Source of the DNA: an uncultured Pseudomonadales bacterium
GTDB taxonomy: Bacteria; Patescibacteriota; Microgenomatia; UBA1400; PJMF01
Assembly (NCBI GenBank): GCA_964583625.1
Contig: CAZOVA010000001.1
Location: forward strand, 159,349 to 223,348
Length of the DNA stretch: 64,000 nucleotides
Direction of reading: 5' to 3'
Part shown: in pieces, positions 8,651-47,600 of the stretch
Layout: every line of letters begins with the position of its first letter
Numbering within the stretch: the first letter of the stretch is position 1
The notes under the pieces: model-generated
Database searches by the model: none
Told to the model about the DNA's origin: nothing
The model's input: the letters and a program-made list of their open reading frames with translations, nothing else
Translations under genes and position numbers: made by a program

Positions 8651-11600
8651 ATGTCTTCGTTTAGCGACCATTTTCAAAGTGAGTTACAAAAATTAAATCC
8701 GCAACAGAGAGAGGCAGTAGAGTCTTTGGAGGGACCAGTCCTAGTTTTTGCTGGTCCAGGAACGGGTAAAACTCAAGTTTTGACCTTGCGGATTGCCAAT
8801 CTTATTGATCAAGGCTTAGCTGGCCCAGAAAATATCTTAGCCCTTACTTTTACTAAGGCAGCAGCAGCTAACATGCAAAAAAGATTGGCAGAATTGATTG
8901 GCATGACCGCTTTTTCTGTCACCTGTCAAACTTTTCATGGCTTTTGCCAGGAAATCATTACGGCTCACGGTGAAGATTTCCCTTTTGCTTATGAGAGTCA
9001 AGTTTTGGATGAGCTGACTGCTAGGGAAATAATGGAAGAGATAATTGACAGTTTACCTTTGCAAATTTTGCGTCCAGCGGGGGATAAATTTCATTATCTC
9101 AAAACCCTATTAGATAAAATTAATGCTTTAAAACAAGAAAATATTACTGTAGACAAATATGCCGTCCTCTTGGAAGCCGCTCGTCAAGAACAACTCGATT
9201 TTATAGCTCAAGAACAAAGTAAGAAAAAACCCAGACAAGGGGAAATCATCAAAAGCCAAAAAAAACTGCAAAAGCAAGAGGAGTTATTATTGGTTTACAC
9301 TGCTTATCAAAAAGAGATACAAGCAAAGGGCTTTCATGACTATGCTGATATTATTTTACGCACCATTGATGTTTTAAAAAATAAAACTGAACTTTTAAGT
9401 TCTTATCAGGAACAATTTCAATATCTACTAATAGATGAATATCAAGATGCTAATAATGCTCAAAGTCAACTAGCTCAGCTTTTGACATCCTATTGGCAAG
9501 ATCAAGCTAATATTTTTGCTGTTGGGGATGCTCAGCAGTCAATTTACCGTTTCCAAGGAGCAAATTTGGAAAATTTTCTTCATTTTAAAAAGATTTATCC
9601 AGAAGCTAAAGTAATTGAACTCAAAACTGGCTACCGTTGTGGCGATTATCATTATCAGTTAGCGCAGACATTGTTTGACACCGCTGAAGGGGAGCAAAAA
9701 TTATTACCAGTCAGTGGTGAACCTTTGCAAAATTTTGCTCGACGCAAAGGGGAAGCGACCGCCATCACCTCTTATCCCAATCGATTAACAGAGCTCTTAG
9801 AATTAGCGGAAAGAATTCAAAGTTTGCACCAGGAAGGGGTACCTTGGGAAGAGATGGCTGTTTTATACCGGAATAATAATGAATCAGAGGATATTTTGAC
9901 CGTTTTAACTCAGTATCAAATTCCTGTGGAGATAGAGGGGGGGACAGATGTCTTAGCTCAAGAAATAATTAATCAATGGCTCATGTTGTGGCGTTTTTTT
10001 GCAACCGTAGATGATAAGCGACTACATGATTATTATTTAGGACAAATTCTTTGGCAACCATGGTGGAATTTGGACCCCTTAGAGATTATGCAAGTTTTGC
10101 AAACAGCCAAAAAAGAAAAACAAAACTTATTAACAGTCATGTTGCAAACAAAAGACAAAAATCAGAACTCCTCAAAGCGGTGGACAGTTAATAAGCTGGC
10201 TCAACAATTGAGCAAATGGTTAAAAGATAGTTATGAACAAAAAGCTGATCGTTTCAATCAACAATTGATGCAGGACAGCCAACTTTTACCTTTTCTCGCT
10301 CAGCAAAAAAACTATTTACCTTTATTAACTTATTTTTATAGTTTGCAAAAAAGATTGCAGTCCTGGGTCAGTAAAAGTCAATCACCACTATTACTTTCTC
10401 AAGCTCTTAGTAAAATTGATTTAATGCAAAACCATCATCTCAAATTGGAAGCGCAAGATCTGAATTTAGGCGAGGGAGCAGTGGCTTTGGCTACAGCTCA
10501 TAAAGCTAAGGGGAGAGAATGGCAGTATGTTTTTTTAGTTGGTTTAAATAAAAATAATTGGCACAAAAAAGATCGCCAACTTTTACCTTTACCTGAAGGA
10601 ATTATGACCTTGCAAACCATCGGTCATGAGGAAAAAGAAGACGAAACTAAGAGATTACTTTTTGTGGCTTTGACTAGAGCAAAAAATAAAACCTTTATTA
10701 GTTGGCATGAACAGGAAGAAGAAGAATCTTTAAGTCCTCCCAAATTGCCATCTCCTTTAGTTTACCTTCTAAAAGAAAAGGCGCCGTCACACACTTGGAA
10801 AGAAGTATCCAGTCAGGTGACTGGCGAAAAAACACAGGCGGCGATGACAACCTTATTGCAATTACCTCCAGAGCATGATTTTTCGGTGGCGGCGCGGCGC
10901 TTTCTTCACCAACAAGCAAAAAAATTAATTATGTCTCCTTCCGTTTTGAACGCTTATTTAGAGGATCAAGATTCTTTTTGGCAAAATTATCTTCTTGACG
11001 CTCCGCTAGAACCCACTACGCCAGCAAAAGAGTTTGGTAGTAGTTTACATTTTGCCTTAGAAAAACTATATCAACCTCGGACTAGGAATGAAGGGTTTTT
11101 ACCTCTAGATCAAGTGCAAAAAATTTTTGCACAAGACTTTTTGCAAAAAGATATTGATGAGGCAAGTAAAAAAAGCTTCCTAGCTTTAGGTAAACAATCA
11201 TTAGCTGCTTATATTCAAACCTACGGTCAAACGGATCTCGAAACTAAAACTTTGGCAGTGGAAAAAAAATTTGGTTATCAATTCAAATTACAAGTTCAAG
11301 GGGTCCCAATCAAAGGAAAAATTGATCGTTTAGATTTTATTGACGACAAGCATCAAACCTTGCGGGTTATTGATTATAAATCAAGCAGTTATTTTAGTTT
11401 GAATGCCTTACTCTCCGGAGAATTTGGTCGAAAAAAACTCAGTGAAAGAGAAAAATTATTGCCTTCTTTTTTACAAAGTAGTATCAAAAGACAATTACTT
11501 TTTTATAAACTTTTATGCCAACTGGAACCGAACTTTCCTTATCAAGTTGAAATTGGAGCAATTGACTTTATCAAAAAATCTAGTTCTGAGAAAAAACTAG

Positions 11601-11707
11601 TGCGTCATCAAATTTCTCTTCCCAATGAAGAAGTAGAAGCTTTGAAAAATTTAATTAAAGAAATTTATGATGAAATTTTATCTTTAAAATTTTTATCGAT
11701 TGATTAA
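8651..11707 (+). CDS. UvrD/PcrA-type SF1 helicase fused to C-terminal RecB-family PD-(D/E)xK nuclease (AddA-like single-chain helicase-nuclease)
   Basis: Helicase motifs I GPGTGKT, II DEYQD, III GDAQQSIYRFQGA, VI VALTRAK. C-terminal nuclease motifs GSSLHFALE, GKIDRLDFID, VIDYKSS, QLLFYKLL. Confidence 0.8.
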   Translation: MSSFSDHFQSELQKLNPQQREAVESLEGPVLVFAGPGTGKTQVLTLRIANLIDQGLAGPENILALTFTKAAAANMQKRLAELIGMTAFSVTCQTFHGFCQEIITAHGEDFPFAYESQVLDELTAREIMEEIIDSLPLQILRPAGDKFHYLKTLLDKINALKQENITVDKYAVLLEAARQEQLDFIAQEQSKKKPRQGEIIKSQKKLQKQEELLLVYTAYQKEIQAKGFHDYADIILRTIDVLKNKTELLSSYQEQFQYLLIDEYQDANNAQSQLAQLLTSYWQDQANIFAVGDAQQSIYRFQGANLENFLHFKKIYPEAKVIELKTGYRCGDYHYQLAQTLFDTAEGEQKLLPVSGEPLQNFARRKGEATAITSYPNRLTELLELAERIQSLHQEGVPWEEMAVLYRNNNESEDILTVLTQYQIPVEIEGGTDVLAQEIINQWLMLWRFFATVDDKRLHDYYLGQILWQPWWNLDPLEIMQVLQTAKKEKQNLLTVMLQTKDKNQNSSKRWTVNKLAQQLSKWLKDSYEQKADRFNQQLMQDSQLLPFLAQQKNYLPLLTYFYSLQKRLQSWVSKSQSPLLLSQALSKIDLMQNHHLKLEAQDLNLGEGAVALATAHKAKGREWQYVFLVGLNKNNWHKKDRQLLPLPEGIMTLQTIGHEEKEDETKRLLFVALTRAKNKTFISWHEQEEEESLSPPKLPSPLVYLLKEKAPSHTWKEVSSQVTGEKTQAAMTTLLQLPPEHDFSVAARRFLHQQAKKLIMSPSVLNAYLEDQDSFWQNYLLDAPLEPTTPAKEFGSSLHFALEKLYQPRTRNEGFLPLDQVQKIFAQDFLQKDIDEASKKSFLALGKQSLAAYIQTYGQTDLETKTLAVEKKFGYQFKLQVQGVPIKGKIDRLDFIDDKHQTLRVIDYKSSSYFSLNALLSGEFGRKKLSEREKLLPSFLQSSIKRQLLFYKLLCQLEPNFPYQVEIGAIDFIKKSSSEKKLVRHQISLPNEEVEALKNLIKEIYDEILSLKFLSID

Positions 11708-11726
11708 AATGTGTTAAACTATTTTT

Positions 11727-13601
11727 ATGGAAAATAATCATCACTCTCCAACAGAACAAAACCCTTCTGTCTTTAAAGGAGAGTCTGTTAAGGAAAACTT
11801 TCAATCAGCTCTTGAAGAAAATACTCCAACTCCTCAACAATTACAAGAACTGGTAGCGGCTTTAAGCGAATCTCTTTATGTTCCCTTAGGAAATCTATAT
11901 TTAAGCGATACTGATATTGGTAGAGAATATGAAGCTTTAAGTGAATCTTTTGATAAAGCTAAAAAAGAACTTTTGCAGTTATTAGATAATAATAATTTAT
12001 CAGCAGAGGATAAAATTTATTTAATTCGAAACTTTTATTTCAGAATGATTGCTGATGGGATAATGTCACCCCTAGAGACAGCTAGCGGTCAATTGGCTCT
12101 AAGAACTTTGGAAGAAAGAGATATTAAAGAGTCGAGAGATATTCATTTGTCAATTATGAGAGGTCAGGGTATTTCTGAGGAAAAAATCTTGGACATTCTT
12201 CAACAAAAAGATGAAGAATTTCGCATTCGAGCTCGTGAGCGTGCTTTAAAAGGAATGGAAAGGACCGGTCTAAATTTTGCTTTGGAAGGATTGAGACAGC
12301 AAAAAGCTGATAATGTAAAAAAAGCTTTTAATGCTTTTTTACAAGAAAATGAAATAAAAAATTCGGTTGCAGTCAGAGAAATAATGCTTAATGAAGAAAA
12401 CCAAATAACTAATCAGTCTCAATTGGAGACAGATTTTGCCGATGGTAACTTTCTTTTTCATAGCACTGGAGTAGATAAGGCTTTGCAAATTTTACAATCA
12501 GGTTTTTTAGTTAATAGCTTAGCTTTACGAAAACAAGGAAAAGCTTTAAACGGAGCGACTAATAATTCTGGCATCGAGGGCATTTCTTGGAGTTTGAATC
12601 AAATCAGCGCCATGCCAGGAGATCGCTATCATCTAGTAGGCTTTGTCAGCAATATTGATAGTATTTTAGCCAATGATATGCAACTCACTGTACCTTCGCG
12701 CGCTGCTCCTTATGAAGTTATTCAGGTGGGAAAAGATTTGTCGGCCCAGGATTTTTATGCCTATAAAAATCAACTTGAACTGTATGAGGATTTTGGTTTT
12801 GGTGATAAAAATAGTGTTTTGTCCAATTTGATATTTCTTAGGTCTGAAGCAGATAATCAAGGGGACAAAGCAACAATTTTTCCTTCAATGATTTTAGAAA
12901 AATTAAAGTCAGAACCAGAATTTTTTCTCCAGGAAGAAAATTTAGATCAATACTATTCTTTTGAGGGAGACAGTATTTTACTAAGTGAAGATTTATTACA
13001 ACAAACAGAAATTCCCACTGGCTTAGTTTTTTTAAGAGCATTGATAAAAAGCGGGCAACTTCAGGCCCTTCATCGTTTTAGTGGAGTTGAAAATTTGAGT
13101 CAGGCAGTAGAGGTTTTGCGTAACAAAGAAGCTTATGATGATTTTATGAATGTTTTTAATAAACAAATCAAGAAAAATAGCCAGGAGATGAATAAATTTG
13201 ATGGACAAATAAAGCCTTTGGCCCAACCAGTTTCTGAAATGTTTTTTGTGGTTCCCGATCATGATTTGTCTTCTTGGAAAGAAATATTATCTCGTTGCGC
13301 GCAACAACCAAAAGGACTTTTGATTTATGATGGACAAAAAGTTCGTTTAGAAAATTTTGCTTCTCGTCACAGCGGTGACCATAATCAATTAACTCAAATT
13401 TTACGTCAGGCTATTCCGGCTAAAAGTGAAGCAGAAGGAGGTTTGAGTTATGGTCAATATTTCTTACAAAAAGACATGGCTACGACTGGAAGGACAGGTC
13501 ATCGTCTCCATGTTTTGAGAGAAAAAGATACTCAGAACCGTCAAACATTAACCAAAGAAAAATGGTTGGATTATAAAAAAAGTTTAGCAAACGATACCTA
13601 A
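11727..13601 (+). CDS. Acidic cytoplasmic hypothetical protein (624 aa) with a candidate ADP-ribosyltransferase/Tpt1-like H-Y-E motif set in its middle
   Basis: 20 nt downstream of the helicase-nuclease. FLFHSTGVDKALQILQSGF resembles PARP/Tpt1 'HG[ST]...IL..G[LF]'. Downstream GISWS and PYEVIQ sit at plausible Y/E positions. No signal peptide or TM. Confidence 0.4.
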   Translation: MENNHHSPTEQNPSVFKGESVKENFQSALEENTPTPQQLQELVAALSESLYVPLGNLYLSDTDIGREYEALSESFDKAKKELLQLLDNNNLSAEDKIYLIRNFYFRMIADGIMSPLETASGQLALRTLEERDIKESRDIHLSIMRGQGISEEKILDILQQKDEEFRIRARERALKGMERTGLNFALEGLRQQKADNVKKAFNAFLQENEIKNSVAVREIMLNEENQITNQSQLETDFADGNFLFHSTGVDKALQILQSGFLVNSLALRKQGKALNGATNNSGIEGISWSLNQISAMPGDRYHLVGFVSNIDSILANDMQLTVPSRAAPYEVIQVGKDLSAQDFYAYKNQLELYEDFGFGDKNSVLSNLIFLRSEADNQGDKATIFPSMILEKLKSEPEFFLQEENLDQYYSFEGDSILLSEDLLQQTEIPTGLVFLRALIKSGQLQALHRFSGVENLSQAVEVLRNKEAYDDFMNVFNKQIKKNSQEMNKFDGQIKPLAQPVSEMFFVVPDHDLSSWKEILSRCAQQPKGLLIYDGQKVRLENFASRHSGDHNQLTQILRQAIPAKSEAEGGLSYGQYFLQKDMATTGRTGHRLHVLREKDTQNRQTLTKEKWLDYKKSLANDT

Positions 13602-13715
13602 AATAATTTTTTTAAACTCTATTATAAAAAATTGTTTATTAATCAATACTTTTGAGTTATTAGGTTTGTAATGACTTTATTAGTGAATGAAATTTATTAA
13701 CAATAAATGGGCAGA

Positions 13716-14333
13716 TTATTGGAAAAGTCTTGGCCTGCCTAATTTATAAACCAAATTGGTTGCCCTTTCACCCAAAGGTTTAGCTGGGATACCAGCAACA
13801 ATGGTTTTGGCTGGGACATTTTTAGTTACAATTGCTCCAGCAGCAACCACCGCTCCTTTGCCAATCGTAACTCCAGGTAAGATAATTGCCCTGGGTCCAA
13901 TAAAAACATAATCTTCAATAACAATTGGTTCTTCAATAGCTGACCAAGCACTATCTTTAAGGTCGTGTTCGCTTGTCCACAGCATTACTTCACTGGCGAT
14001 ATCGACATGATTACCAATTTTTAAACCTCCCTGAGAATTAGGTAATTGTCTTCTCCCATCTAAAGTGGCTTTTTCGCCAATCAAAGTGTCATCGCCAATG
14101 GTGATATGTCTAGGATCATAAATACGAGCTTGCATATGAATGGCAGAGCCACGACCAATTTTCATCCCACTTAGGCGATAAAAGAACTTACGTAAAATAT
14201 GAGAAGGTAAATTACCGACAAACCACCAAAGAAAGCCAGTTAAAAACTCCAAGTACCAAGCTAAAAAACGTCCCTTTATTTTTTCTTGGATTTGTTTTTG
14301 GTTAAGCTTCTTTCCATCCTTATCTTTGATCAT
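13716..14333 (-). CDS. Left-handed beta-helix (hexapeptide-repeat) acyl/acetyltransferase, membrane-associated N-terminus (WcaF/galactoside-O-acetyltransferase-like)
   Basis: Repeated [LIV]GxxxxIG hexapeptide repeats ([32 protein letters not shown]). Hydrophobic N-terminal segment. Confidence 0.75.
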
Positions 14334-14365
14334 AGATAAAAAGATTATACTATAAAAAACTTAAA

Positions 14366-14398
14366 TAAAAATAAGCCCCGCCCTCAAAGAGGGCGGGG
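14366..14398 (-). terminator. Rho-independent terminator (CCCCGCCCT/AGGGCGGGG stem, U-run on minus strand) downstream of the DsbA-like gene
   Basis: GC-rich 9-bp hairpin with an A-run on the + strand (T-run on the minus strand), immediately 3' of the minus-strand gene ending at 14425. Confidence 0.6.
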
Positions 14399-14424
14399 TT
14401 AAAAGGGTTAACAAAACTTGTATC

Positions 14425-15510
14425 TTAGATCTCGCAACTAGCTCCAGGTGTCTCACTGGCACAACAGATCATTTGTTGATAGGCTTCAGCGGTACGACCT
14501 CCGAAATCGAAGTCTGCCACTGCCTGCTCATCATTCATAAAGAAACTTGGAGTTCCTTGAATGGCATGTTGGTTGGCTGCCTCGAAATCAGCTTTAATGG
14601 CTGTTAAACCACTACCATCAGTCATACAAGCATCAACAACAGCAGTATTGACTTTGGCGGTTGTTTGACACTTAGTAGTTTCGCCTTCATTCACCATACA
14701 ACCAATGTAATCCCAAAAGGTGTTAGGATCTTTTTTTCGGATACAAACCTGACGGAGATTTTCTGTTCCGCTTTCTTCACCTCCTAAAAAGGAGATAACT
14801 TTATTATCAGCATCAACCGTGCCGGTATAATTCAACTTTAGGTTTTTAGCTAAATCTGGATTATTTTTTATAGCTTGGGCCATAGCTTCTTCTGCATCTT
14901 GACAATGTCCGCAGTCGGAGGTGACATAAGCAACCAATTTTGGTTCGGCTACTTTATTCAAGGTTTCACAGGTTGCAGTCTCTGTATTGGCAGTTTGATC
15001 AGAACCAGCTCCGTCTTGTAAAAAGTCTTCTACTATGATACCAGTGTCAACAAAGAAGCGCTTCCCATCTTTGGTTACTGCAGAGGTAAATTCTTCATCA
15101 TAGTCTTTGAATTTTATTGAGAAAGTGAATAAACCATTTTCCTCTTTAAGTTTGCCCAATTGCTCAACTTCCATTCCTCCACCTAAATTTCCTACCAATC
15201 CAGGCAAAAATTTATTAATTTTACTGATCTGGATTTGATCTTTGATGGTATTTCCAATAATAATTGCCGCCACGGTTAATAAAACTGCACCAATAAAAGT
15301 ACCCCAGGCAAATCGACCACTATTTGTTTTTTGTTGTTTTTGTGTTTGTTGCATTTCCATCTTTTTCAATTCTTTTTTCGCTTCTTCAACGATATCTACT
15401 TTTTTAACTGTTGGCTTAGAGCTTTTTTTTGCTGGTTTAGATGATGCCTTTCTAACCATTTTATTTTTTTTCTTTTCTGCCATAATGTCATTACATCTAA
15501 TTTGATTCAA
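14425..15510 (-). CDS. Membrane-anchored thiol:disulfide oxidoreductase, DsbA/thioredoxin fold with PDI-like CGHC active site
   Basis: Lys-rich cytoplasmic N-tail, one TM (FAWGTFIGAVLLTVAAIIIG), extracytoplasmic domain with SDCGHCQ motif. Additional Cys pairs near the C-terminus (CCASETPGASC). An internal alternative start at ~15483 is possible. Confidence 0.7.
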   Translation of the reverse strand: MNQIRCNDIMAEKKKNKMVRKASSKPAKKSSKPTVKKVDIVEEAKKELKKMEMQQTQKQQKTNSGRFAWGTFIGAVLLTVAAIIIGNTIKDQIQISKINKFLPGLVGNLGGGMEVEQLGKLKEENGLFTFSIKFKDYDEEFTSAVTKDGKRFFVDTGIIVEDFLQDGAGSDQTANTETATCETLNKVAEPKLVAYVTSDCGHCQDAEEAMAQAIKNNPDLAKNLKLNYTGTVDADNKVISFLGGEESGTENLRQVCIRKKDPNTFWDYIGCMVNEGETTKCQTTAKVNTAVVDACMTDGSGLTAIKADFEAANQHAIQGTPSFFMNDEQAVADFDFGGRTAEAYQQMICCASETPGASCEI

Positions 15511-15700
15511 ACTTTTTGAACAAAAGATTTTATCAAACCAGAGTTTCCTTTCTTTTTATTTTTTTTCTAAAATATACACAAACCAAAGATAGACAAAAAA
15601 CTGTCTCACTGTAATTTATAACATTTTTTTAATTTGTCAAGAAGTAAAAATTGTTTTAAAACTAATCAAACCTCAGCAGCTTAATAAAAAAGATGCTATA

Positions 15701-16048
15701 ATGAGATCTATGTCAAAGCTTTATTTTTTTCTATTATCGACGGTTTCTTTAGTTATTTCTGCTTTTGTTATACCAGGTGTGAGATTGGCCAATTTTGCTA
15801 GTGCATTGGTGGCGGTGATTATGATTAGTTTAGTGAACATTTTTATTAAACCAGTTTTACAGCTTCTAGCTTTTCCGCTCAATATTTTTACTTTAGGACT
15901 CTTTTCTTTGGTCGTCAATGGTTTGCTATTTTTACTAGTGGCAGCAATTGTGCCTGGCTTTGAAATAGCCAATCTTTGGTGGGCTATTTTGATGGCTGTC
16001 GTCTACTCAATTATCACTGCTTTTTTGGCTTATATTTTTGATGAATAG
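15701..16048 (+). CDS. Small 4-TM membrane protein of the 'phage holin family 4_2'/YvlD-like (DUF360) type
   Basis: 115 aa, four hydrophobic helices, VPGxxxxxFxxAL...PGFE pattern characteristic of this family. Confidence 0.55.
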   Translation: MRSMSKLYFFLLSTVSLVISAFVIPGVRLANFASALVAVIMISLVNIFIKPVLQLLAFPLNIFTLGLFSLVVNGLLFLLVAAIVPGFEIANLWWAILMAVVYSIITAFLAYIFDE

Positions 16049-16103
16049 AGTTTTATAGTGAGGAAAATAATTTTAAATTGGAGAGAGATGATTTAATTTA
16101 TTT

Positions 16104-17138
16104 ATGAAAGATTTTTTTATTAAACTTAAACACTGGTTAAAAAAGAACTATAAAAAAATTATTGTTTTTATTTTAATTCTAATTTTATTAATTTTTTGGT
16201 GGCAAAAAAAAGAAACAAATCAAGAAGTTTGGGAAACCATCTATCCTCAAGAAGAAGATTTGCTTACCTCTTTAACTGTTTCTGGCAAGATAGATGCCAC
16301 AAGTCGAGTGCGATTATTTTTTAGTGCTGGAGGGAAACTTACTTATCTTGGAGCGAAAGAGGGAGATGTAGTAAAGAAATGGCAAAGAATTGCCACTATT
16401 GATCAAGCAGCCCTAAACAAGCAAATGCAGCAAAACCTCAATCTTTATATGAAAGAGCGTTATCAGTTTGAAGATGTTAAAGATGATAATAAAGATAAAA
16501 TCCTAGACACTAAAGAAACAAGAGCCTTTGCTCAAAAACAATTTGATTTAGATAATAGCGTTCTCAATGTAGAACTGCAACAGATAGCTATTAATAATAC
16601 TGCTTTAAATGCCCCTTTTGCTGGAATCATGACAGTTGTCCCAAAAACTGTAGCTGGGGTAGCAATTTCTCCAACAGAATTTTTCGAGATCACTGATCCT
16701 AATACTTTGGTTTTTCGAGCCACAGTAGATGAGGTGGATATTAGCCAATTAAGAAAAGGCTTGGAAGCGACAATTGTTTTGGATGCCTATGAGGACGAAG
16801 AAATAAAAACTCAAATTTCTTTTATTTCTTATGTTAGTGCGGAATCAACTACTGGGACAGTTTTTTTAGTGGAATTTCCATTTAATAGCAATGACTTAAA
16901 CAAATATCGTCTGGGGATGAATGGCGATGTTACAATCAAATTGGCAGAGAAAAAATCAGTCTTAACCCTGCCTTTGGAAGCAATTATTGAACGGGATGAT
17001 AAAAAATTTGTTTACCTAAAAAATCAAGAGACTGGGGAAAAAGTTGAACAAGAAATTACGACTGGTCTGGAAAATGATGAAAAAGTGGAGGTCACATCTG
17101 GTTTAAACCCCAATCAAGAAATTATTTTACCAGATTAA
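16104..17138 (+). CDS. Efflux periplasmic adaptor (HlyD/MacA-like membrane fusion protein)
   Basis: N-terminal TM, coiled-coil/lipoyl-like segments, beta-barrel C-terminus. First gene of the operon with the ABC ATPase and FtsX-type permease. Confidence 0.75.
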   Translation: MKDFFIKLKHWLKKNYKKIIVFILILILLIFWWQKKETNQEVWETIYPQEEDLLTSLTVSGKIDATSRVRLFFSAGGKLTYLGAKEGDVVKKWQRIATIDQAALNKQMQQNLNLYMKERYQFEDVKDDNKDKILDTKETRAFAQKQFDLDNSVLNVELQQIAINNTALNAPFAGIMTVVPKTVAGVAISPTEFFEITDPNTLVFRATVDEVDISQLRKGLEATIVLDAYEDEEIKTQISFISYVSAESTTGTVFLVEFPFNSNDLNKYRLGMNGDVTIKLAEKKSVLTLPLEAIIERDDKKFVYLKNQETGEKVEQEITTGLENDEKVEVTSGLNPNQEIILPD

Positions 17139-22365: not shown

Positions 22366-22442
22366 GCGCCCATAGCTCAAGTGGTTAGAGCACCAAGCTT
22401 ATACCTTGGCGGTTCGAGGTTCGAGTCCTTGTGGGCGCACCA
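22366..22442 (+). tRNA. tRNA-Ile, anticodon TAT (UAU; decodes AUA)
   Basis: Acceptor GCGCCCA/TGGGCGC. Ile-like D-arm GCTCAAGTGGTTAGAGC. Anticodon stem CCAAG/CTTGG with loop CTTATAC. T-arm CGAGGTTCGAGTCCTTG. Discriminator A, CCA encoded. Confidence 0.85.
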
Positions 22443-23585: not shown

Positions 23586-23948
23586 TTAGTTTTCACTTTC
23601 CACTCGATCAACCACTGTTTTGCAATAAAGATATTTACTTTTATCGACTATTTTTTCCGCTAGATCTTTATTTTCGCCAGCCCGACTAGCTTCTTCATTG
23701 ACAGCTCCTAAATTTTGCCAGAGATTTTCCCCTCTTTGTGTTACATTCTTCAAACCACTACCAAAATTATCCATAAAGTTTTCTACTTGCTGTTCGTCAA
23801 CATTAAATTGCATACTTTTGCCACTTAGGCTAGCGAGAGGGAGAGAAACACAAGAACGTAGTTCTTTTTTAGTAAAAAAGTGATAGCCAAAAAATAATAC
23901 CAAAGCCAGTAAAACAATTTGCAAAATAAATCGAAAAATTTTTAACAT
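23586..23948 (-). CDS. Small N-terminally membrane-anchored hypothetical protein
   Basis: Single N-terminal TM, then a hydrophilic 95-aa domain. Immediately downstream (same strand) of the pilin-like array. Confidence 0.45.
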   Translation of the reverse strand: MLKIFRFILQIVLLALVLFFGYHFFTKKELRSCVSLPLASLSGKSMQFNVDEQQVENFMDNFGSGLKNVTQRGENLWQNLGAVNEEASRAGENKDLAEKIVDKSKYLYCKTVVDRVESEN

Positions 23949-23960
23949 ATGCGTTTTTAT

Positions 23961-24329
23961 TTAGAAACCAGGGTTGAGCTCATCAATACCTGCCACTCCT
24001 AAAACCAACTTCCACAAAGCAAAAGCAGAGGCAGTAATCAAGAGACCGATGGCAGCATAAACCATTCTGTCTCTTCCGACTGTCTTTTTACTGGTTTCTC
24101 CCGAAGAAGTGATTAGAGTGATTCCTCCCCAAATTAAAAAGAAGAGGGAAGTGACAGCTGCTCCAAAAAATATCAATTGGGCAATTTTTCCTACTAAGAT
24201 AGCCCAATTAATTGTTCCATCACTATAAATTCCGCCCGCTCCTTGGAGCAAGCTACTTCCTTCACCGCCAATTTGACCCAAAAGAACCTCATTTTCTTCA
24301 GCTTGTATGTCTTTTATTAAATTAATCAT
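23961..24329 (-). CDS. Pilin-like two-helix hairpin membrane protein, paralog 1 (TrbC/VirB2-type topology)
   Basis: ~40-aa hydrophilic N-terminus, TM1, basic loop (SSGETSKKTVGRDR), TM2, C-terminal ...ELNPGF. Shares N-terminal (L)IKDIQAEE and C-terminal LNPT motifs with the neighbours. Confidence 0.6.
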   Translation of the reverse strand: MINLIKDIQAEENEVLLGQIGGEGSSLLQGAGGIYSDGTINWAILVGKIAQLIFFGAAVTSLFFLIWGGITLITSSGETSKKTVGRDRMVYAAIGLLITASAFALWKLVLGVAGIDELNPGF

Positions 24330-24346
24330 TTTTACTCCTTTACTTT

Positions 24347-24721
24347 TTACTCAATAGTTGGGTTCAAGATAGCATCTGGACTGCCAAATAAAGCATTGCC
24401 TATCCAGCCAGCAATCATCCAAGCGGAAGCGACCAAAAGTAAACCCAAAGTGGTCCAAAGAATTCTTTTCATTTCTTCGGAAAAAACTTTTGGATCTCTT
24501 GCTCCTTGAACAATTTTTAAACCAGAAGTAATAATGGTAAAAAGAAACCAAATGCCAGCAATGACAGTTGCTAGTCCTAAGGCATTGTTGACAAAATTAA
24601 TTGGTCCTGTCAATTTCCCACCTTTTTCAATATCATCATAAGTATAGCCACCTCCTATTGGATCAATGGATCCAAAGATAGAACTTTCTGTAGCTTGAAT
24701 AGTTTTAATTAAGTTTAACAT
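24347..24721 (-). CDS. Pilin-like two-helix hairpin membrane protein, paralog 2
   Basis: Same architecture. Loop motif SGLKIVQGARDPKVFSEEMKRIL is shared nearly verbatim with paralog 3. Confidence 0.6.
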   Translation of the reverse strand: MLNLIKTIQATESSIFGSIDPIGGGYTYDDIEKGGKLTGPINFVNNALGLATVIAGIWFLFTIITSGLKIVQGARDPKVFSEEMKRILWTTLGLLLVASAWMIAGWIGNALFGSPDAILNPTIE

Positions 24722-24733
24722 ATTTTTTATTCC

Positions 24734-25405
24734 TCAAATACTGCCTCTTTCTTGTGTTTTTCCTGGCCCCTTGATAGTGGGCTTGAGTAAGAAATCTTCT
24801 TCACCATAGAAGGTTTTACTCACAAAGCCAACAATGATGTAAGCGAAAACTATTAATAATAATCCCAAAGAACTTAATAATAGACGCTTCATATTTTCTC
24901 CAAAGTTTTTTGGGTCTTTACCGCCGATGATCACTTGCACACCAGACCAAAGCATGATGATCAGTAAAATACTAGCGGTAATGATTACCAGAAAATTAAT
25001 GATTTTATTAATAAAAGGAGTAATGCCTGATAAACTTTGAAAGTCGGTGGCTGTTCCCTCTACGGGAGTGATTTGTCCATAAACATAATCACCATCTAGT
25101 GTTGGATTGACTTGATCTAAACAAAACCTAGTTTTTCTATAGGTAATTCTACCATTTTCCCTACACGAAACATTAATATCAGTATAGTTAGGATAACCAG
25201 CGCTACAATCCCCACTTTCATCAGGGCAACGAACATGGTCCTTAAGAGAGGCCGGAAAGGAAGCTGTAATTTCAGCGCAAAGATCTGGATCATCACAGTT
25301 TCTGAATGAACCCGTTCCCGTACCCTCTTCATTAAGAGAAAAGACTTTTCCATTAGCGATGAAGAAGAAAATAAATATCAATGAAAAAATAATGCTTTTT
25401 TTCAT
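24734..25405 (-). CDS. Pilin-like hairpin module fused to a signal-peptide-led Cys-rich N-terminal ectodomain, paralog 3
   Basis: Signal peptide MKKSIIFSLIFIFFFIANG. ~130-aa ectodomain with 7 Cys. C-terminal module WSGVQVIIGGKDPKNFGENMKRLL...LKPTIKG. Confidence 0.6.
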   Translation of the reverse strand: MKKSIIFSLIFIFFFIANGKVFSLNEEGTGTGSFRNCDDPDLCAEITASFPASLKDHVRCPDESGDCSAGYPNYTDINVSCRENGRITYRKTRFCLDQVNPTLDGDYVYGQITPVEGTATDFQSLSGITPFINKIINFLVIITASILLIIMLWSGVQVIIGGKDPKNFGENMKRLLLSSLGLLLIVFAYIIVGFVSKTFYGEEDFLLKPTIKGPGKTQERGSI

Positions 25406-25770
25406 AAAGCCTGGACTCCTGTAACTGTTTCAATAATTCTCACTATCCAATAAGCGGCTAACATAATCATTAAACCAATCACTCCAGTAGTCAAATATTG
25501 TCGCGTACTTTCTAGAGCTTTGGATTTATCCTTCATAAAAATCAACTTATATCCAGAAAAGAGAATTAAAGCAAAAAACAAAATACCGCCCAACATAATT
25601 AAGTTTTTAGCAATGATATTAATCATTGAGCCAGTACTACTATATACAGATCTAACTCTAGTGCCAGCAGTTTGATTGAGGAGAAAATCATTAAAATATT
25701 CATAGGTCTCACTATTGGCAGTAGGGGGGCCGATAGTGGCTTGAGCGGTAGCTTGAATAGCTTCTGTCAT
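25402..25770 (-). CDS. Pilin-like two-helix hairpin membrane protein, paralog 4 (identical to paralog 5)
   Basis: 122 aa. TM1-FSGYKLIFMKDKSK loop-TM2. ATGA-type overlaps with neighbours at both ends. Confidence 0.6.
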   Translation of the reverse strand: MTEAIQATAQATIGPPTANSETYEYFNDFLLNQTAGTRVRSVYSSTGSMINIIAKNLIMLGGILFFALILFSGYKLIFMKDKSKALESTRQYLTTGVIGLMIMLAAYWIVRIIETVTGVQAL

Positions 25771-26135
25771 AAAGCCTGGACTCCTGTAACTGTTTCAATA
25801 ATTCTCACTATCCAATAAGCGGCTAACATAATCATTAAACCAATCACTCCAGTAGTCAAATATTGTCGCGTACTTTCTAGAGCTTTGGATTTATCCTTCA
25901 TAAAAATCAACTTATATCCAGAAAAGAGAATTAAAGCAAAAAACAAAATACCGCCCAACATAATTAAGTTTTTAGCAATGATATTAATCATTGAGCCAGT
26001 ACTACTATATACAGATCTAACTCTAGTGCCAGCAGTTTGATTGAGGAGAAAATCATTAAAATATTCATAGGTCTCACTATTGGCAGTAGGGGGGCCGATA
26101 GTGGCTTGAGCGGTAGCTTGAATAGCTTCTGTCAT
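25767..26135 (-). CDS. Pilin-like two-helix hairpin membrane protein, paralog 5 (100% identical copy of paralog 4)
   Basis: Identical 122-aa translation. Part of an exact 365-bp tandem duplication. Confidence 0.55.
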   Translation of the reverse strand: MTEAIQATAQATIGPPTANSETYEYFNDFLLNQTAGTRVRSVYSSTGSMINIIAKNLIMLGGILFFALILFSGYKLIFMKDKSKALESTRQYLTTGVIGLMIMLAAYWIVRIIETVTGVQAL

Positions 26136-26224
26136 AAAGCCTGGACTCCTGTAACTGTTTCAATAATTCTCATCTTTTTAATTATATCATCTTTTACTTT
26201 TTTATACATTAAATATGCTTTTTG

Positions 26225-27022
26225 CTATTTGTTTAAGTAAAAATAAATTATTAATACCAATAATAAGCCCAAAGCGCCAATTATCAAATTTCTGCGGTCG
26301 GGGAAAGTGGTTCTATCTTTATTTTTTACTGAGATTAGTTTATAAGTGGAAAAAAGAACTAAGATAAAAAACAAAATCCCGCTGAAGAGAAGAAAATTTT
26401 TAATTGCATTATTTTCCGTCTGGCTTAGATTTTGGTTTTGAGTCGTGATTGTTTTTTCATCGTCTTTTAGTTCAAGACTGTCGTCATCATCGCTCTCTTG
26501 AGAAGCAACTAAATTAATATTAATATCAGAAATAGAGGACTCAGTGGCTGTGAGATCAGAAGTAGAAACGGGTGAGTCAGCAAAGACAATATTATTTTTA
26601 CCCACCAACTCTTGACAATTGTCGCTATCACATCTTTTTGTGTCAGCGCACCAGGTAGAAATTTGTGGACCAGTTTTAAGGCATTGATTAAAATTTAAAT
26701 TCGGATTACAGGAAAAGTCTGTTTTTTCAGTTCCATCATTAATCTTAGTTAAACATGAACCTGAGAAAAAGTCGATTGGCATCTCCATAATGGCATCCGT
26801 TTTTTGACATAAATCACTGTTCTCTTTGTATTCTCCCTCTAGTGGTGAGTCTAAAAATGAACTCTCGCAAAAAATTTTCATTTGTTCGCAATTATCCTCT
26901 CCAGAGGATTTATAACAAAGATTATATTTAAGACAGGAACAGCTATTTTCTGCTCCCACTATTGAGATTTTCACTAAATTTAGAAGAAAAATTAAAACCA
27001 AAACACTTAAAAATTTTTTCAT
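26225..27022 (-). CDS. Pilin-like hairpin module fused to signal-peptide-led Cys-rich plus acidic Ser/Asp-rich ectodomain, paralog 6
   Basis: Signal peptide. ~14 Cys in the N-terminal domain. Acidic low-complexity linker (SQESDDDDSLELKDDEK). C-terminal FSGILFFILVLFSTYKLISVKNKDR...GALGLLLVLIIY. Confidence 0.6.
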   Translation of the reverse strand: MKKFLSVLVLIFLLNLVKISIVGAENSCSCLKYNLCYKSSGEDNCEQMKIFCESSFLDSPLEGEYKENSDLCQKTDAIMEMPIDFFSGSCLTKINDGTEKTDFSCNPNLNFNQCLKTGPQISTWCADTKRCDSDNCQELVGKNNIVFADSPVSTSDLTATESSISDININLVASQESDDDDSLELKDDEKTITTQNQNLSQTENNAIKNFLLFSGILFFILVLFSTYKLISVKNKDRTTFPDRRNLIIGALGLLLVLIIYFYLNK

Positions 27023-27083
27023 TTTTACTTTTTTATATCTTTATAATCGTCTTTTCTTCTTTTATACCTTATAATAATCTCTA

Positions 27084-27635
27084 ATGTCAAGAGGGCAAAA
27101 AATCTTTACTGACGAAAAAATTTTGCTAGCCTCTCTACGCGCTGGTGACAGCGCAGCAGTAGAGTACTGGTATCGTCAATACAGCGCTCGTTTAACCGCT
27201 TTTATTCAGGCAAAAGTGGGTTCAACTCATGACGTTCAGGACTTAACTCAAGAAACTTTCATTTGTTGTCTTCAGAACTTGCATAATTTTTCTGGTCATA
27301 GTCGCTTGTGGACTTGGATGTGTGCCATCGCCAAACATGAAGTAGCGGATTACTATCGCAAGCTTTATGCTAAAAAAGTTTTAAAACTCCTTCCATTATC
27401 GGACTTTCTGACTCAGGTAGAACTTTATGACTCGACAGAGTTGGCTGAAAAATTGGAATATGTTTGGCAAAAAATTGGCGCCCACTATAAAGAATTACTT
27501 TTAGAAAAGTACCTTGATAAACATCAAGTCAAAGAAATGGCGCGCGCGCGCGGTAAAACAGTCAAGACAATTGAAAGTGAGCTTTGGCGCGCGCGCCAGG
27601 CTTTTAAGTCAGCTTACCGTGAACTTGAGGATTAA
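27084..27635 (+). CDS. ECF-type sigma-70 family sigma factor
   Basis: Region 2 (DLTQETFICCLQNLHNF) and region 4 HTH (VKEMARARGKTVKTIESELWRARQAF). 183 aa. Divergent from the pilin-like array. Confidence 0.75.
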   Translation: MSRGQKIFTDEKILLASLRAGDSAAVEYWYRQYSARLTAFIQAKVGSTHDVQDLTQETFICCLQNLHNFSGHSRLWTWMCAIAKHEVADYYRKLYAKKVLKLLPLSDFLTQVELYDSTELAEKLEYVWQKIGAHYKELLLEKYLDKHQVKEMARARGKTVKTIESELWRARQAFKSAYRELED

Positions 27636-27657
27636 GGATTCGTAAATTGACTTCAGT

Positions 27658-27849
27658 ATGAATGAAAAAAAATTTCTCAAACAATTAAAAAAACAAGCCC
27701 AAGACCAAGCTCCCCTGGCGAAACTTCATCTTTTTCCCAGCAAACTTCAGCCTTTTACTGCTTGGATTTGGCAGCATTCTTGGAAGTTTTGGCTACTTTT
27801 ATCTTTAATTAGTGCTTTTATTTTTGAAAAACAGTGGGGGAGATGCTAA
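27658..27849 (+). CDS. Small single-TM protein immediately downstream of the ECF sigma (candidate minimal anti-sigma factor)
   Basis: 63 aa, cytoplasmic basic N-terminus then one TM. Position is typical for an anti-sigma partner. Confidence 0.35.
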   Translation: MNEKKFLKQLKKQAQDQAPLAKLHLFPSKLQPFTAWIWQHSWKFWLLLSLISAFIFEKQWGRC

Positions 27850-28175
27850 TGAAAAAAAACCAGTTTTTCAATTTTAGCTTATCCTTTTTTTATGCTTTGG
27901 TAAAAATTGCCGTCGGTCTATTACTTCATCCTTATCAAACGATGTTTTCTTTAATTAAAGAAAAAGTTTTTTGGAGTTTAGTTTTTACCCCTACCTTAGT
28001 TTTTATTTTTTTAACCTTTTTTTGGCGCTTGGCAATTCGTTCTTTGGTCTTGTATTTTTTTAATGCTACTTGTTTATTAATGACGATTAAAACCAGCGTT
28101 TTATTCTTTTGTTTTTTTTGGCAGTTAGCGCTTTTTTATTTGTGGCTAAAGTTTTATTATTTCTGGCGACGGTAA
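27834..28175 (+). CDS. Small polytopic membrane protein (3-4 TM), hypothetical
   Basis: Highly hydrophobic, Phe/Leu-rich. Overlaps the previous ORF by 16 nt. Confidence 0.35.
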   Translation: MGEMLMKKNQFFNFSLSFFYALVKIAVGLLLHPYQTMFSLIKEKVFWSLVFTPTLVFIFLTFFWRLAIRSLVLYFFNATCLLMTIKTSVLFFCFFWQLALFYLWLKFYYFWRR

Positions 28176-44653: not shown

Positions 44654-47600
44654 ATGTCTGAACTAGCCTTACATTATGCGGGAATAGATGAAAAAGATTT
44701 TACTTTTAAAAAATCTGCCGACAAGAAAAAACAAAATTCTCAAAAAGAAGCAGAGATAACTGAAGAAGCCGAGGTTAGTCGTGAAATAGATTTTTATCTT
44801 CAACAAATCGACGATGAATGGGAAAAACCGCCTTCGACTTTGGAGGTTTTAAGCCCGGTTTTAGTTAAAGAAAAAGAGTTTTTTTCTGAGAAAGAAAAAG
44901 ATGTTGATATTAGTGATAAAATTGCTCAAGCAATTAATGATCAGTTCATCGCTAATAAGATAGAAACCAACTCAGAGGCAACTAGGTTTTTAACTGACCT
45001 GGGACAAAGAATGATTGAGGGGACAGAACTAAGTCAATTGCGGGTTTTTATTATTAAAAAAGGAGAAACAATTAATGCGAGTGCTTTCCCCGATGGGACA
45101 ATTTTTTTTACTCAGGCTTTGCTCAACTGTTTAGACACTGTTGATGAGATTGGAGCTGTTCTAGCTCACGAAATAGGTCATCTACTTAATAAAACCACCG
45201 TGAGCACTTATGGCAGTGAAAACTCAATTGGTCTAGGCTGGGCGCATGAAATGGCCAGTGACATCACTTCTCAATCTTTATTAGAAAAAGTTGGGCTTAA
45301 CTCTGGTGCTTTAGTGTCTGCTTTGAAAAAAATTGATGCAAAAGGCACAAAAGATGATACGTCAAGAAATAAAAGAGATATTGTTCATCAAAGTGCTCAA
45401 GCTAGAGCCTTTGAGTTTAAATTGGTTACGCAAAAACTAGACTCTCACACCAGCGATATTGATCAAACCCCCAAAGAACAATATGACTTTCTGCGCTCAG
45501 CAGAGATCCAGCCGACCAATTTTGAAATTTTGAAAAAAACTATCGATTTACGAAGCGAAGCTTTAATGACTCGAGTGCTAGAGAAGATGTCAGCCGAAGA
45601 CTTGGTTAAAACTAATCGTTTTTTGAGTGAATCTTTGAGTAAAAAGATCGAAGAGGAACAAGGTTTTTACGAGGAAACCCAAATTTATTATGATTTAGAA
45701 TCTGCTTTTATTCTTCAGACTAAAAAATCTTTAGATCAACTTTTGCAAAGAAGACTGGTCGCAGAATTGGATATCGATGAATCAGTGGCTAAGGCTATTT
45801 TTCTTATTAATGGAACTTCTAGAGAGTTTAATGATAAAGGATTAAGAGAGTTACAGCTTTTTAATTCATTTGAAGAAGTTTTGCAGGGTTTGGACGACCT
45901 ATCTTTTTGGGATAACTTTTTCAAACAAAAGAGAAATTTTTCTCCCTCTTTGCAGAAATTACTTTTCCAACCTTCGTCATATCATTATATAAATAAAGCT
46001 CCTAGAGCTCAATATCAAGAAATTTTTTTTGATCCCAAACGGTGTTTAGTAGCAGGAATGTTGAATTCTTCCTTCTATAGTTTAGAGCGTCAAAGCCCAG
46101 AAGAAGGAACTTTCTTTATTGATCCTAAAAAGTTTTTTATTCTATTTGATAGAATTTCTAATGAGCTCAATGAAGATATTAAAAAACATTTAATCGCAAG
46201 TTTTTTCTTTTTTTATTTTTATTCTAATTCTTTGGAAAATAGAGCAAAAATTTTCAGTTATGAAGAGCAAAAAGACTTTTTTACTGGGCTCAAAGCTAGA
46301 GGAATTAAATTTAATTTTATTAAGGAAAGAACAGACTCTGGTGAAAAAGGCCTAGAATTTGTAGAAAGCTTTTTTTCATCAAATACAATCGAAGCTTGGC
46401 GATTAGCTTATGGTGAATCAGCAGAACAAGACAATGAAGATGAGGGAATAGAAAAACTCTTTCAAGACTTTATTGATCAGCTCTCTTTTTTGGGGGGACA
46501 AAAAAATAGCGGTTCTTCCAAATCTTCACCTAAAGGTTTTACTCGTCAACTATCAGATTTTACGGAAAAAGTTCAAAATTTGCGCGTAAAAAGAGATATT
46601 TCTGATGAGAGTTGGGAAAAAATAATAACTGTTCTTAAAGAGAAACTGACAGCTCTTCATTTACCAGCCAGGGATCGCATTCTTGATCACGAAAACTTTT
46701 TTAGGCCAGTAGGACTAAAACATCAAATTGAAAATGAATCAGTTCAGCAGGAAAACCAAAAAGTTTTTGAATTTAAGACAGCTCTTTATATTTTCACCGT
46801 TTTGGATTGTCGAGAAAAAAACCAGCAAACTAGCCGACTAGCTAAGTTTTTAGCCGAATCGGATCTAAACTTTGAGACTTATGACTGGAAACAGCTTATT
46901 TATTTACTTCAGGGTATTTGGGCAAAAAAATTTCAAATGAGAACCTTTTTACAATCGGAACTTGGGTCAGAGGGAACTTTGCCTCCTTTTGGGTTTAGTG
47001 GGAACTATGATTTTACTCAATTGGAGAGTTTGTTACCAATTAAAATTCTTTTGGAAAAAATTGATCAAGCTTTTGTGCCCGCCGAAAACTTGGAAAAATT
47101 TTTAGTGTTAATAAAAGAGAAAAAAGACTTTTTAAATAATTTTTATCTTCCGAACTCGCCTCATATCTCTCCTGATGATGAGAATCTTTTTGATGACTCT
47201 TGGCACGAAATTTATTTTTGGAAAAATGAAAGAGAAAATCTTCTTTCTTTAATTCAAAATCTTGATCTTAGTAAAGAAAAAGCGACCGATTTCCCCACGA
47301 TTATTAATCTAATCACAGAGATCCTACCCAATGATGCTTCTTTGTCAGAGGTAAAAAATAAACTAACTTTGGCTTATCTGCGACAGAAAGAAATTCCCTT
47401 TGATCAAAGAGCAGACTTTTTCTTTCAGCAGACCGATTCAGAACTAGAGGGGGTAGAAATTCTAGCTAGCGAGATTGACGACTTAGCTGTTTATAAAAAT
47501 TTTAAAAGTAAAATAGACGCTTATCGAAAACGTTGGCAAAAAGAAAAAAAAGATCTTTCTTTGATAGCCTTAGCAGACTTTTTTTCCAGTTTTTTTAAAG

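Follow-up and report, generated by a model that had tools for sequence, protein, structure and literature searches.

What are six consecutive genes whose products all end in the same pair of hydrophobic helices, and what ties them to the gene of an extracytoplasmic function (ECF) sigma factor that stands head-to-head with them? The locus lies in a stretch of 64,000 nucleotides (the window: contig CAZOVA010000001.1 of GenBank assembly GCA_964583625.1, positions 159,349 to 223,348 of the forward strand) from an uncultured bacterium placed by GTDB in the Patescibacteriota (Microgenomatia). A first-pass annotation, made from the sequence of the window, had read it as a diversifying array of TrbC/VirB2-type pilins with its own envelope-stress-type regulator. 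A large part of the bacterial diversity that is uncultivated belongs to the Patescibacteria, and in the one species tested a type IV secretion system (T4SS), together with a series of pilins, is essential for epibiotic growth. Our analysis favours, with moderate confidence, the reading that the genes form a chromosomal array of VirB2-like T4SS pilins (family PF18895) of Patescibacteria, which would be assembled by a T4SS and functionally tied to the neighbouring sigma factor unit. The genes of the array and of the sigma factor unit are as follows.

26225–27022, minus strand: pilin-like gene A, 265 aa; signal peptide, acidic N-terminal ectodomain of ~180 aa with 12 Cys, B-type hairpin.
25767–26135, minus strand: pilin-like gene B, 122 aa; B-type, without signal peptide; 187 bits against the B-type hidden Markov model (HMM).
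25402–25770, minus strand: pilin-like gene C, 122 aa; protein identical to B; ATGA overlaps with B and D.
24734–25405, minus strand: pilin-like gene D, 223 aa; signal peptide, N-terminal domain with 6 Cys, hairpin ending in LLKPTI plus a tail.
24347–24721, minus strand: pilin-like gene E, 124 aa; without signal peptide; ends in ILNPTIE.
23961–24329, minus strand: pilin-like gene F, 122 aa; without signal peptide; ends in LNPGF.
23586–23948, minus strand: gene G, 120 aa; N-terminal transmembrane (TM) helix and a soluble domain with two conserved Cys.
27084–27635, plus strand: ECF-type (group 4) sigma factor, 183 aa; regions 2 and 4 only.
27658–27849, plus strand: 63-aa protein; conserved amphipathic N-terminal helix and one hydrophobic segment; candidate minimal anti-sigma factor.
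27834–28175, plus strand: membrane protein of ~113 aa; 3–4 TM segments, GLLLHPYQT motif; start at GTG 27834 or ATG 27843.

Open reading frames (ORFs) and alignments agree on the six minus-strand genes at 23961–27022 and on their common C-terminal two-helix module, as first annotated. In the alignments the module, of ~70 aa and C-terminal in all six proteins, consists of two hydrophobic helices joined by a short Lys/Arg-rich loop, and a hydropathy scan revealed exactly two C-terminal hydrophobic segments in each protein. A local HMM of the module, run over the 64-kb window, matched exactly the six array genes. BLASTP between the paralogs gave E-values of 1e-21 for D and E, 1e-12 for A and B (43% identity between their modules) and 8e-8 for E and F. 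Profile–profile alignment with hhalign joined the B type to the D/E type (Prob 96.3%, E-value 1.5e-9), the F type to the D/E type (95.7%) and A to the B type (96.6%). Judged by these comparisons, the similarity among the array paralogs is far beyond chance. Since the B and C proteins are identical tandem copies, the six genes represent five distinct paralogs and not the six first counted.

The inter-helix loop carries 4–6 Lys and Arg against 2–3 Asp and Glu, and the N-terminal tails are net acidic; the module thus fits a predicted topology with both termini outside and the short basic loop inside, as had been proposed from the positive-inside rule. Signal-peptide-like start segments were detected by hydropathy on A and D and on none of B, C, E and F, whose N-terminal tails measure just 42–51 aa, again in agreement with the first description. 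The AlphaFold2 (AF2) model of E comprised helices at residues 40–72 and 77–112, with a predicted local distance difference test (pLDDT) score above 90, and a disordered stretch at residues 1–35; that of D comprised helices at 128–160 and 165–200 (pLDDT 83–90), and pLDDT over the hairpins was 83–94 overall. The N-terminal domain of D was modelled at low confidence (pLDDT 40–65), with no assignable fold.

Several finer features of the array needed correction. The two ectodomains are indeed Cys-rich, but hold 12 (A) and 6 (D) Cys in place of the ~14 and 7 reported. An (L)NPT ending, said to close the second helix often, is found in similar form on D, E and F and not on A, B and C. Translational coupling through ATGA overlaps, proposed for the whole array, applies to the B/C and C/D junctions only; the remaining junctions are spaced by 12–17 nt (D–E, E–F and F–G) or 89 nt (A–B). 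A sortase sorting signal was considered for the C-terminal LNPT and rejected, as neither a TM segment nor a charged tail follows the motif.

Family searches placed the E (33.1 bits) and D (28.9 bits) proteins above the gathering score of PF18895 (T4SS_pilin, 26.6 bits) and F (22.7 bits) below it, and A, B and C, searched singly, gave no PF18895 match; A alone matched nothing in Pfam. Among 17 array proteins, namely those of this genome and of three relatives, 13 matched PF18895 at an E-value of ≤0.01 (best 3.8e-12). Because the profile–profile links join A, B/C and F to D/E, all members of the array are taken as PF18895 homologs. Matches to PF04956 (TrbC/VirB2) were weak, involving five of the 17 proteins (best E-value 1.8e-5); the sole match in the window was D, whose 20.0 bits (E-value 7.9e-4) lie below the gathering score of 27.9 bits. 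The profile comparison suggested by the first-pass annotation thus assigns D and E to the T4SS-pilin family, but leaves TrbC/VirB2 below its gathering score. Searches against NCBIfam gave weak matches to the Mbov_0395 pilin-like conjugal transfer protein of a Mycoplasma integrative and conjugative element (ICE), with the E protein at an E-value of 1.1e-6, below the cut-off. In an exhaustive profile search, the family comprised 56,000 representatives of 50%-identity clusters at an E-value of ≤1e-3 and 5,366 at ≤1e-10. Two other identities were rejected: type IV pilus (T4P) pilins, as the proteins lack a class III signal motif and matched no T4P HMM, and holin or immunity proteins, which are ruled out by family membership and by the conserved multi-type array.

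Arrays of this kind have been described before. In 3,035 Patescibacteria genomes, Quinonero-Coronel et al. (2025) looked for matches to PF04956 and PF18895 and reported 1,948 assemblies with VirB2-like pilins, which were close to virB4 in 1,135 of these assemblies and away from it in ~40%; 441 arrays of 2–11 pilin genes, from 383 assemblies, had a mean within-array identity of 25% and a maximum of 54%, and were especially common in Microgenomatia and Saccharimonadia (PMC12102498). In Southlakia epibionticum, a predicted pilin series inside the T4SS cluster, in the SEML1_0006-0019 region, is essential (Wang et al. 2023; PMC10633639). Since VirB2-like arrays have been published for Patescibacteria (PMC12102498, PMC10633639, PMC12857230), the present locus belongs to a known kind and is not new. 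Like the arrays of S. epibionticum and of Nanosynbacter lyticus TM7x (the 'Sec secreted array'), it consists of tandem PF18895/PF04956-type genes of low paralog identity in the chromosome of a monoderm, ultrasmall host, some of them with Sec signal peptides. Unlike the S. epibionticum array, which lies inside the T4SS cluster, it is at least 24–37 kb from any virB4-like gene, and unlike the published arrays, with their maximum identity of 54%, it contains two 100% identical copies and is paired with an ECF sigma factor unit. With the diderm TrbC/VirB2/TraA pilins of mating-pair-formation (MPF) types MPF-T and MPF-F, the array proteins share small size, two hydrophobic helices, a short basic loop, termini outside, in some cases a long N-terminal leader, and weak HMM similarity; they differ from those pilins in the lack of adjacent virB genes, in their large Cys-rich ectodomains and in the members without a signal peptide.

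Comparison with relatives revealed which parts of the array are conserved. A scan of genome contigs gave two true relatives, and syntenic loci were found in four close relatives (L007, L008, L009 and L049). Each of these carries the sigma factor gene followed by a ~64-aa and a ~113-aa gene and, on the divergent side, B-, D-, E- and F-type pilin genes, then G. Identity to the close relatives was 81–85% for RecA, 70–75% for SecA, 70–72% for phosphoglycerate kinase (PGK) and 66–69% for the sigma factor, compared with 42–61% for B, 41–60% for E, 47–61% for F and 43–47% for the hairpin module of D; the G orthologs were 49–57% identical. By these values the hairpins are evolving faster than housekeeping genes, yet as orthologous types. 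The N-terminal domain of D found no match at an E-value of ≤1e-3 in three of the four close relatives, and that of A in none of the four. The ectodomains fused to the module range from 0 to >300 aa and are hypervariable, and signal peptides and Cys-rich inserts have been gained and lost among orthologs; such turnover of signal peptides fits an outward N-terminus, since short tails need none.

Sequence comparison thus indicates that the hypervariable part is the N-terminal ectodomains and not the hairpins, and that the paralogs fall into four types of ancient origin (B, D, E and F), whose order, with G behind them, is constant across relatives. The idea of a diversifying locus therefore holds for the ectodomains, but not for the hairpin paralogs. 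Gene A, which has no ortholog in L007–L009, is an extra paralog. Gene G, the seventh co-oriented gene, closes the block and is kept 3′ of the F-type gene in the close relatives; it matched no family in Pfam or NCBIfam. Multiple diverged pilin copies in tandem are also a feature of the virB2 loci of Bartonella and Anaplasma, which have been read as a source of surface variation or of host-interaction range (cited in PMC12102498); unlike those arrays, which lie in virB operons of diderm intracellular pathogens, the types here are anciently fixed in order. In one close relative (L008, 4638–7217, minus strand), the array is followed by a gene whose product, secreted, Cys-rich and 859 aa long, carries thrombospondin type 1 repeats (PF19030, E-value 1e-10), which are unusual in bacteria.

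The gene at 27084–27635 was confirmed as that of an ECF sigma factor, with scores of 49 bits for Sigma70_r2 (PF04542) and 56.6 bits for TIGR02937 (cut-off 42.9); PF08281, at 20.1 bits, was below its gathering score, and no specific equivalog reached its cut-off (SigZ, 74 vs 212). At least 718 homologs were found, some of them labelled 'Patescibacteria group bacterium', in keeping with the lineage. In nine of the ten homologs examined (L007, L008, L009, L049, L050, L051, L052, L138 and L139; sigma factor identity from 69% down to 42%), 4–9 pilin-module genes lie directly divergent from the sigma gene, with 31–65 bp between the start codons. In all nine loci the sigma-proximal gene is of the B type, followed by D/E-type and then F-like genes. 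A metagenome scan with a sigma factor alignment returned mostly unrelated ECF sigma factors (21–35% identity); of 117 loci around these, taken as a negative control, 0 had a module gene. The divergent arrangement of array and sigma gene noted at first is thus conserved linkage.

The two small ORFs behind the sigma gene, initially suggested as possible anti-sigma partners, both proved to be real conserved genes. The 63-aa protein is encoded next to the sigma gene in all nine array-bearing related loci, and alignment of eight sequences revealed invariant F6, L7, L10, A14 and Q17 in the amphipathic helix; no family or anti-sigma domain in Pfam or NCBIfam matched it, however. The 113-aa protein is kept in most of the nine loci (six sequences aligned), with tblastn identities of 34–64% in L007–L009 and L049–L052. 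The unit resembles ECF sigma/anti-sigma modules in having a small single-TM protein in the anti-sigma position and a divergent putative target operon; it differs from canonical modules in its 63-aa partner, which falls far short of the length of anti-sigma domains and has no family match, in the presence of a third conserved protein, the 113-aa multi-TM one, and in that no ECF-type promoter was recognised. A limited search of the Patescibacteria array and T4SS literature (PMC12102498, PMC10633639) found no mention of a sigma factor with pilin arrays. The pairing of sigma factor unit and array appears to be unreported, and the apparently undescribed contextual feature is the conserved ECF sigma factor unit together with the fixed order of pilin types. 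The locus is a clean example of pilin paralogs that are distinct, anciently fixed types and not interchangeable variants, of host-facing variation concentrated in the N-terminal Cys-rich domains of some types, and of a specific sigma factor unit that travels with the array.

Genes with a possible bearing on a T4SS were found outside the window and in relatives. About 8 kb to the left of the window lies a solitary PF18895-like gene (L047, 1154–1609; 151 aa, 25.6 bits), directly followed by the gene of a 1,727-aa protein (L047, 1672–6855) with SLT transglycosylase, peptidase C39-like and esterase/S9 domains, a candidate VirB1-like cell-wall hydrolase by its domain content; a sortase gene lies just to the right of the window. 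In L138, 3.6 kb separate the sigma–pilin unit from a PrgI-family (VirB3-like) gene that scores 29.1 bits (gathering score 27); a TraC-like gene and the gene of a 1,362-aa M23 peptidase are also near, and the neighbourhood in question spans 10341–16549. A protein of 1,100–1,190 aa follows the array in L139 (1–3184; 1,128 aa, faint SLT_3 match) and is encoded by the first gene of L050–L052, with a faint SLT_3 match, a cellulase domain or no match.

Several results weigh against the favoured reading, as regards both the pilins and their tie to the sigma factor. VirB4, VirD4 and VirB6 were found neither in the window, as already noted at first, nor within ~10 kb past either end, and the same holds for the virB6/prgH, prgI and trsD cluster genes; the unannotated ORFs of the window gave no T4SS family match and no Walker A motif, and housekeeping or unrelated genes account for its ten largest ORFs (histidine kinase, AddA/UvrD-like helicase, SecA, IleRS, GltX, PNPase, phosphorylase and a giant M48-domain protein among them). 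Many family members are polyproteins with 2–8 hairpin modules per polypeptide, such as P0034 (820 aa, eight hairpins) and P0041 (312 aa), and these are hard to reconcile with a simple pilin subunit. Alignment of the array profile with Agrobacterium-type VirB2 by hhalign gave a Prob of 1.1% over 17 columns, centred on a 'P..VNN' stretch ahead of helix 1, in a test that is weak because the VirB2 template held three sequences (from annotated plasmids of Agrobacterium, Rhizobium and Novacetimonas). PDB sequences, searched by profile, gave only chance matches to G-protein-coupled receptors, and Foldseek returned nothing significant; fold searches are non-specific here because a two-helix hairpin is too simple to discriminate. 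Homology to experimentally characterised VirB2 was not demonstrable in this analysis, and no visualisation of a pilus of the PF18895-type family was found in the Patescibacteria T4SS literature. What stands of the TrbC/VirB2 assignment is PF18895 membership, the five weak PF04956 matches and the AF2 hairpin, but not a direct link to a bona fide VirB2; we infer that link from the recurrent weak PF04956 matches, the naming by the Pfam curators and published annotation based on structure and context. The polyprotein members and the missing ATPase argue for caution, and the absence of a T4SS ATPase nearby would equally suit a hairpin that is a membrane anchor, with variable N-terminal domains or acidic tails displayed as adhesins or receptors independently of any T4SS. 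Ectodomains of many sizes and hypervariable sequence, the resemblance of 2–8-module polypeptides to polytopic membrane proteins and the generic nature of the TM hairpin fold point the same way. We nevertheless consider such an anchor unlikely: B, C, E and F have no domain to display, yet are the best-conserved members, and four types in fixed order over deep divergence suggest the assembly of different subunits. The TrbC/VirB2 matches, weak as they are, recur, and a T4SS link is argued for by the homologous arrays embedded in the essential T4SS cluster of S. epibionticum and by the PrgI-family and TraC-like genes near the L138 array. Less likely still is a role of the array proteins as in-membrane channel components of a monoderm T4SS, lining or gating the translocon in the membrane and cell wall without an extended pilus. 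This role has analogues in the small two-TM proteins of Gram-positive conjugation and in the 'pilin-like' protein of the Mycoplasma ICE, and the best NCBIfam matches are to the Mbov_0395 family of wall-less monoderms; moreover, Patescibacteria have a T4SS of the MPF-FATA type, in which pili are generally lacking (PMC12102498, PMC10633639). However, 4–9 paralogs per locus, some with large ectodomains, seem too many for the lining of a channel, and a 2025 review, which calls a pilus in a monoderm T4SS remarkable, deems a pilus-like structure likely but unproven (PMC12857230).

Whether the sigma factor controls the array turns on the region between them:

27023–27083, between the divergent genes: intergenic region of 61 bp with -10-like boxes both ways, TATAAT 8 nt before the sigma ATG and TATAAA variants toward A.

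The core of this region is near-invariant among the close relatives and holds two TATAAT-type boxes, each 6–8 nt from a start codon. The ECF-type promoter looked for upstream of 27022 was not borne out: no GGAAC...CGT-like ECF motif was seen in the intergenic region, only the TATAAT-type boxes. About 17 further genes of the window, among them pgk, uppS, ileS, gltX and the L21 gene, have a like box-to-ATG arrangement, and because of this the intergenic promoters look like the ordinary, leaderless-type promoter of the organism. Across the window, TATAAT/TAAAAT boxes, often with a TGn extension, lie 6–10 nt before many start codons, e.g. 3718(-), 7087, 14333(-), 15710, 20889, 22615, 27084, 28269, 36091(-), 38234(-), 41044(-), 42978, 44654, 55912, 56613 and 58488, which suggests that transcription in this genome normally starts from -10-only promoters and yields leaderless or near-leaderless mRNAs; a generic promoter scan gave 22 sites, no enrichment over the 15.6 ± 4 of shuffled sequence. 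One sigma factor homolog (47% identity, 173 aa) adjoins no array. It is quite possible, if somewhat the less probable case, that sigma factor unit and array are neighbours by inherited synteny, the array being transcribed by the housekeeping sigma factor and the ECF sigma factor controlling other genes. The ordinary boxes on both sides, the missing ECF motif and the wide synteny shared by the close relatives (uppS, nadD, pgk, recA) would all fit. The pairing persists, however, down to a sigma factor identity of 42% despite different surrounding genes (NUDIX, mevalonate-pathway or PrgI-family neighbours in the lower-identity loci), and the head-to-head arrangement with its short spacing is kept throughout. 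ECF sigma factor genes are commonly adjacent to their targets. Synteny is the evidence from which we infer that the sigma factor may control the array, so that the envelope-stress-type regulator first proposed retains its conserved linkage, but not an ECF promoter.

By sequence and model, each hairpin sits in the membrane with both ends outside and the short basic loop inside, and the outward N-termini of A and D bear cleavable signal peptides and Cys-rich ectodomains. If the array does encode T4SS pilins, the proteins would then be pulled out of the membrane and built into a pilus-like or conduit structure by a monoderm-type (MPF-FATA-like) T4SS, which would be encoded elsewhere in the genome. 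The conserved types may correspond to distinct major and minor subunits, with the variable ectodomains contacting the host cell, and the sigma factor and the 63-aa and 113-aa TM proteins may constitute a membrane-signal-responsive regulator that synteny ties to the array. Only tentatively can this be taken further, to a single cassette in a large Patescibacteria clade in which these three proteins and the ordered array would act as a membrane-signal switch for the production or composition of a T4SS pilus, including its host-contacting ectodomain subunits. If true, the cassette would be the first regulatory handle on the essential, functionally unexplained T4SS of Patescibacteria, and control of the array by the sigma factor would offer a testable entry to the regulation of host attachment or exchange.

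The identical genes B and C are part of a tandem repeat that records the recent history of the locus:

25397–26172, no strand: 365-bp tandem repeat of 2.13 copies, containing B, C and a 3′ remnant.
26132–26224, minus strand: A–B spacer with the ancestral first-pilin promoter element AAAGATGATATAAT and the remnant ORF MRIIETVTGVQAL*.

The element AAAGATGATATAAT, at 26181–26194, is an extended -10 (TGnTATAAT) and an exact 14-mer that occurs once in the window. L007, L008, L009 and L049 have one copy each, which precedes the start codon (ATG) of the sigma-proximal B-type pilin gene by 5–8 nt. Here it is followed, 7 nt on, by the 13-codon remnant ORF MRIIETVTGVQAL* (26132–26173), which is a third, partial copy of the 365-bp repeat and whose TGA overlaps the ATG of B. 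An assembly artefact was considered for the B/C duplicate and rejected, as the copy-to-copy junction from B to C is also present in two independent ENA assemblies (L136 and L137); the duplication is therefore taken as real. Six independent short-read assemblies of the strain (Logan contigs L001–L006) all stop 26 bp upstream of D, at the 365-bp repeat, and assemblies of this kind thus lose or collapse the B/C region systematically. The 365-bp unit may vary in copy number.

Beside the sigma gene, the promoter region is present in a separate, diverged copy that belongs to A. The simplest reading of these sequences is that an older duplication of the promoter and a B-type gene gave rise to A, and that a recent unequal exchange produced the identical pair B and C. 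Both B and C lack the signal peptide that their closest orthologs have; this is no sign of decay, since the sigma-proximal B-type genes of more distant relatives as a rule lack one too. A one-mismatch copy of AAAGATGATATAAT, AAAGATGCTATAAT, was located at 15689–15702 (plus strand), 7 nt before a Phage_holin_4_2-family gene (start 15710), and could reflect a shared promoter type or chance.

Other observations concern the remainder of the window. An ORF at 44654–49684 (plus strand) encodes a 1,676-aa protein without TM segments, in which the sole recognisable domain is an M48 peptidase segment at residues 113–185. Two small ORFs, at 5674–6072 (minus strand) and 8238–8570 (plus strand), encode proteins that look secreted: one has 15 Cys in 132 aa, and the other a signal peptide, a Thr/Ser/Pro-rich stretch and a C-terminal hydrophobic segment. 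The window also contains the gene of a thioredoxin/DsbA-like protein (14425–15510) and a thioredoxin–thioredoxin reductase pair (4296–5589). Finally, a tRNA-Ile gene with a UAU anticodon was found at 22366–22442 (plus strand), an uncommon solution, as AUA is usually decoded in bacteria by a lysidine-modified CAU tRNA.

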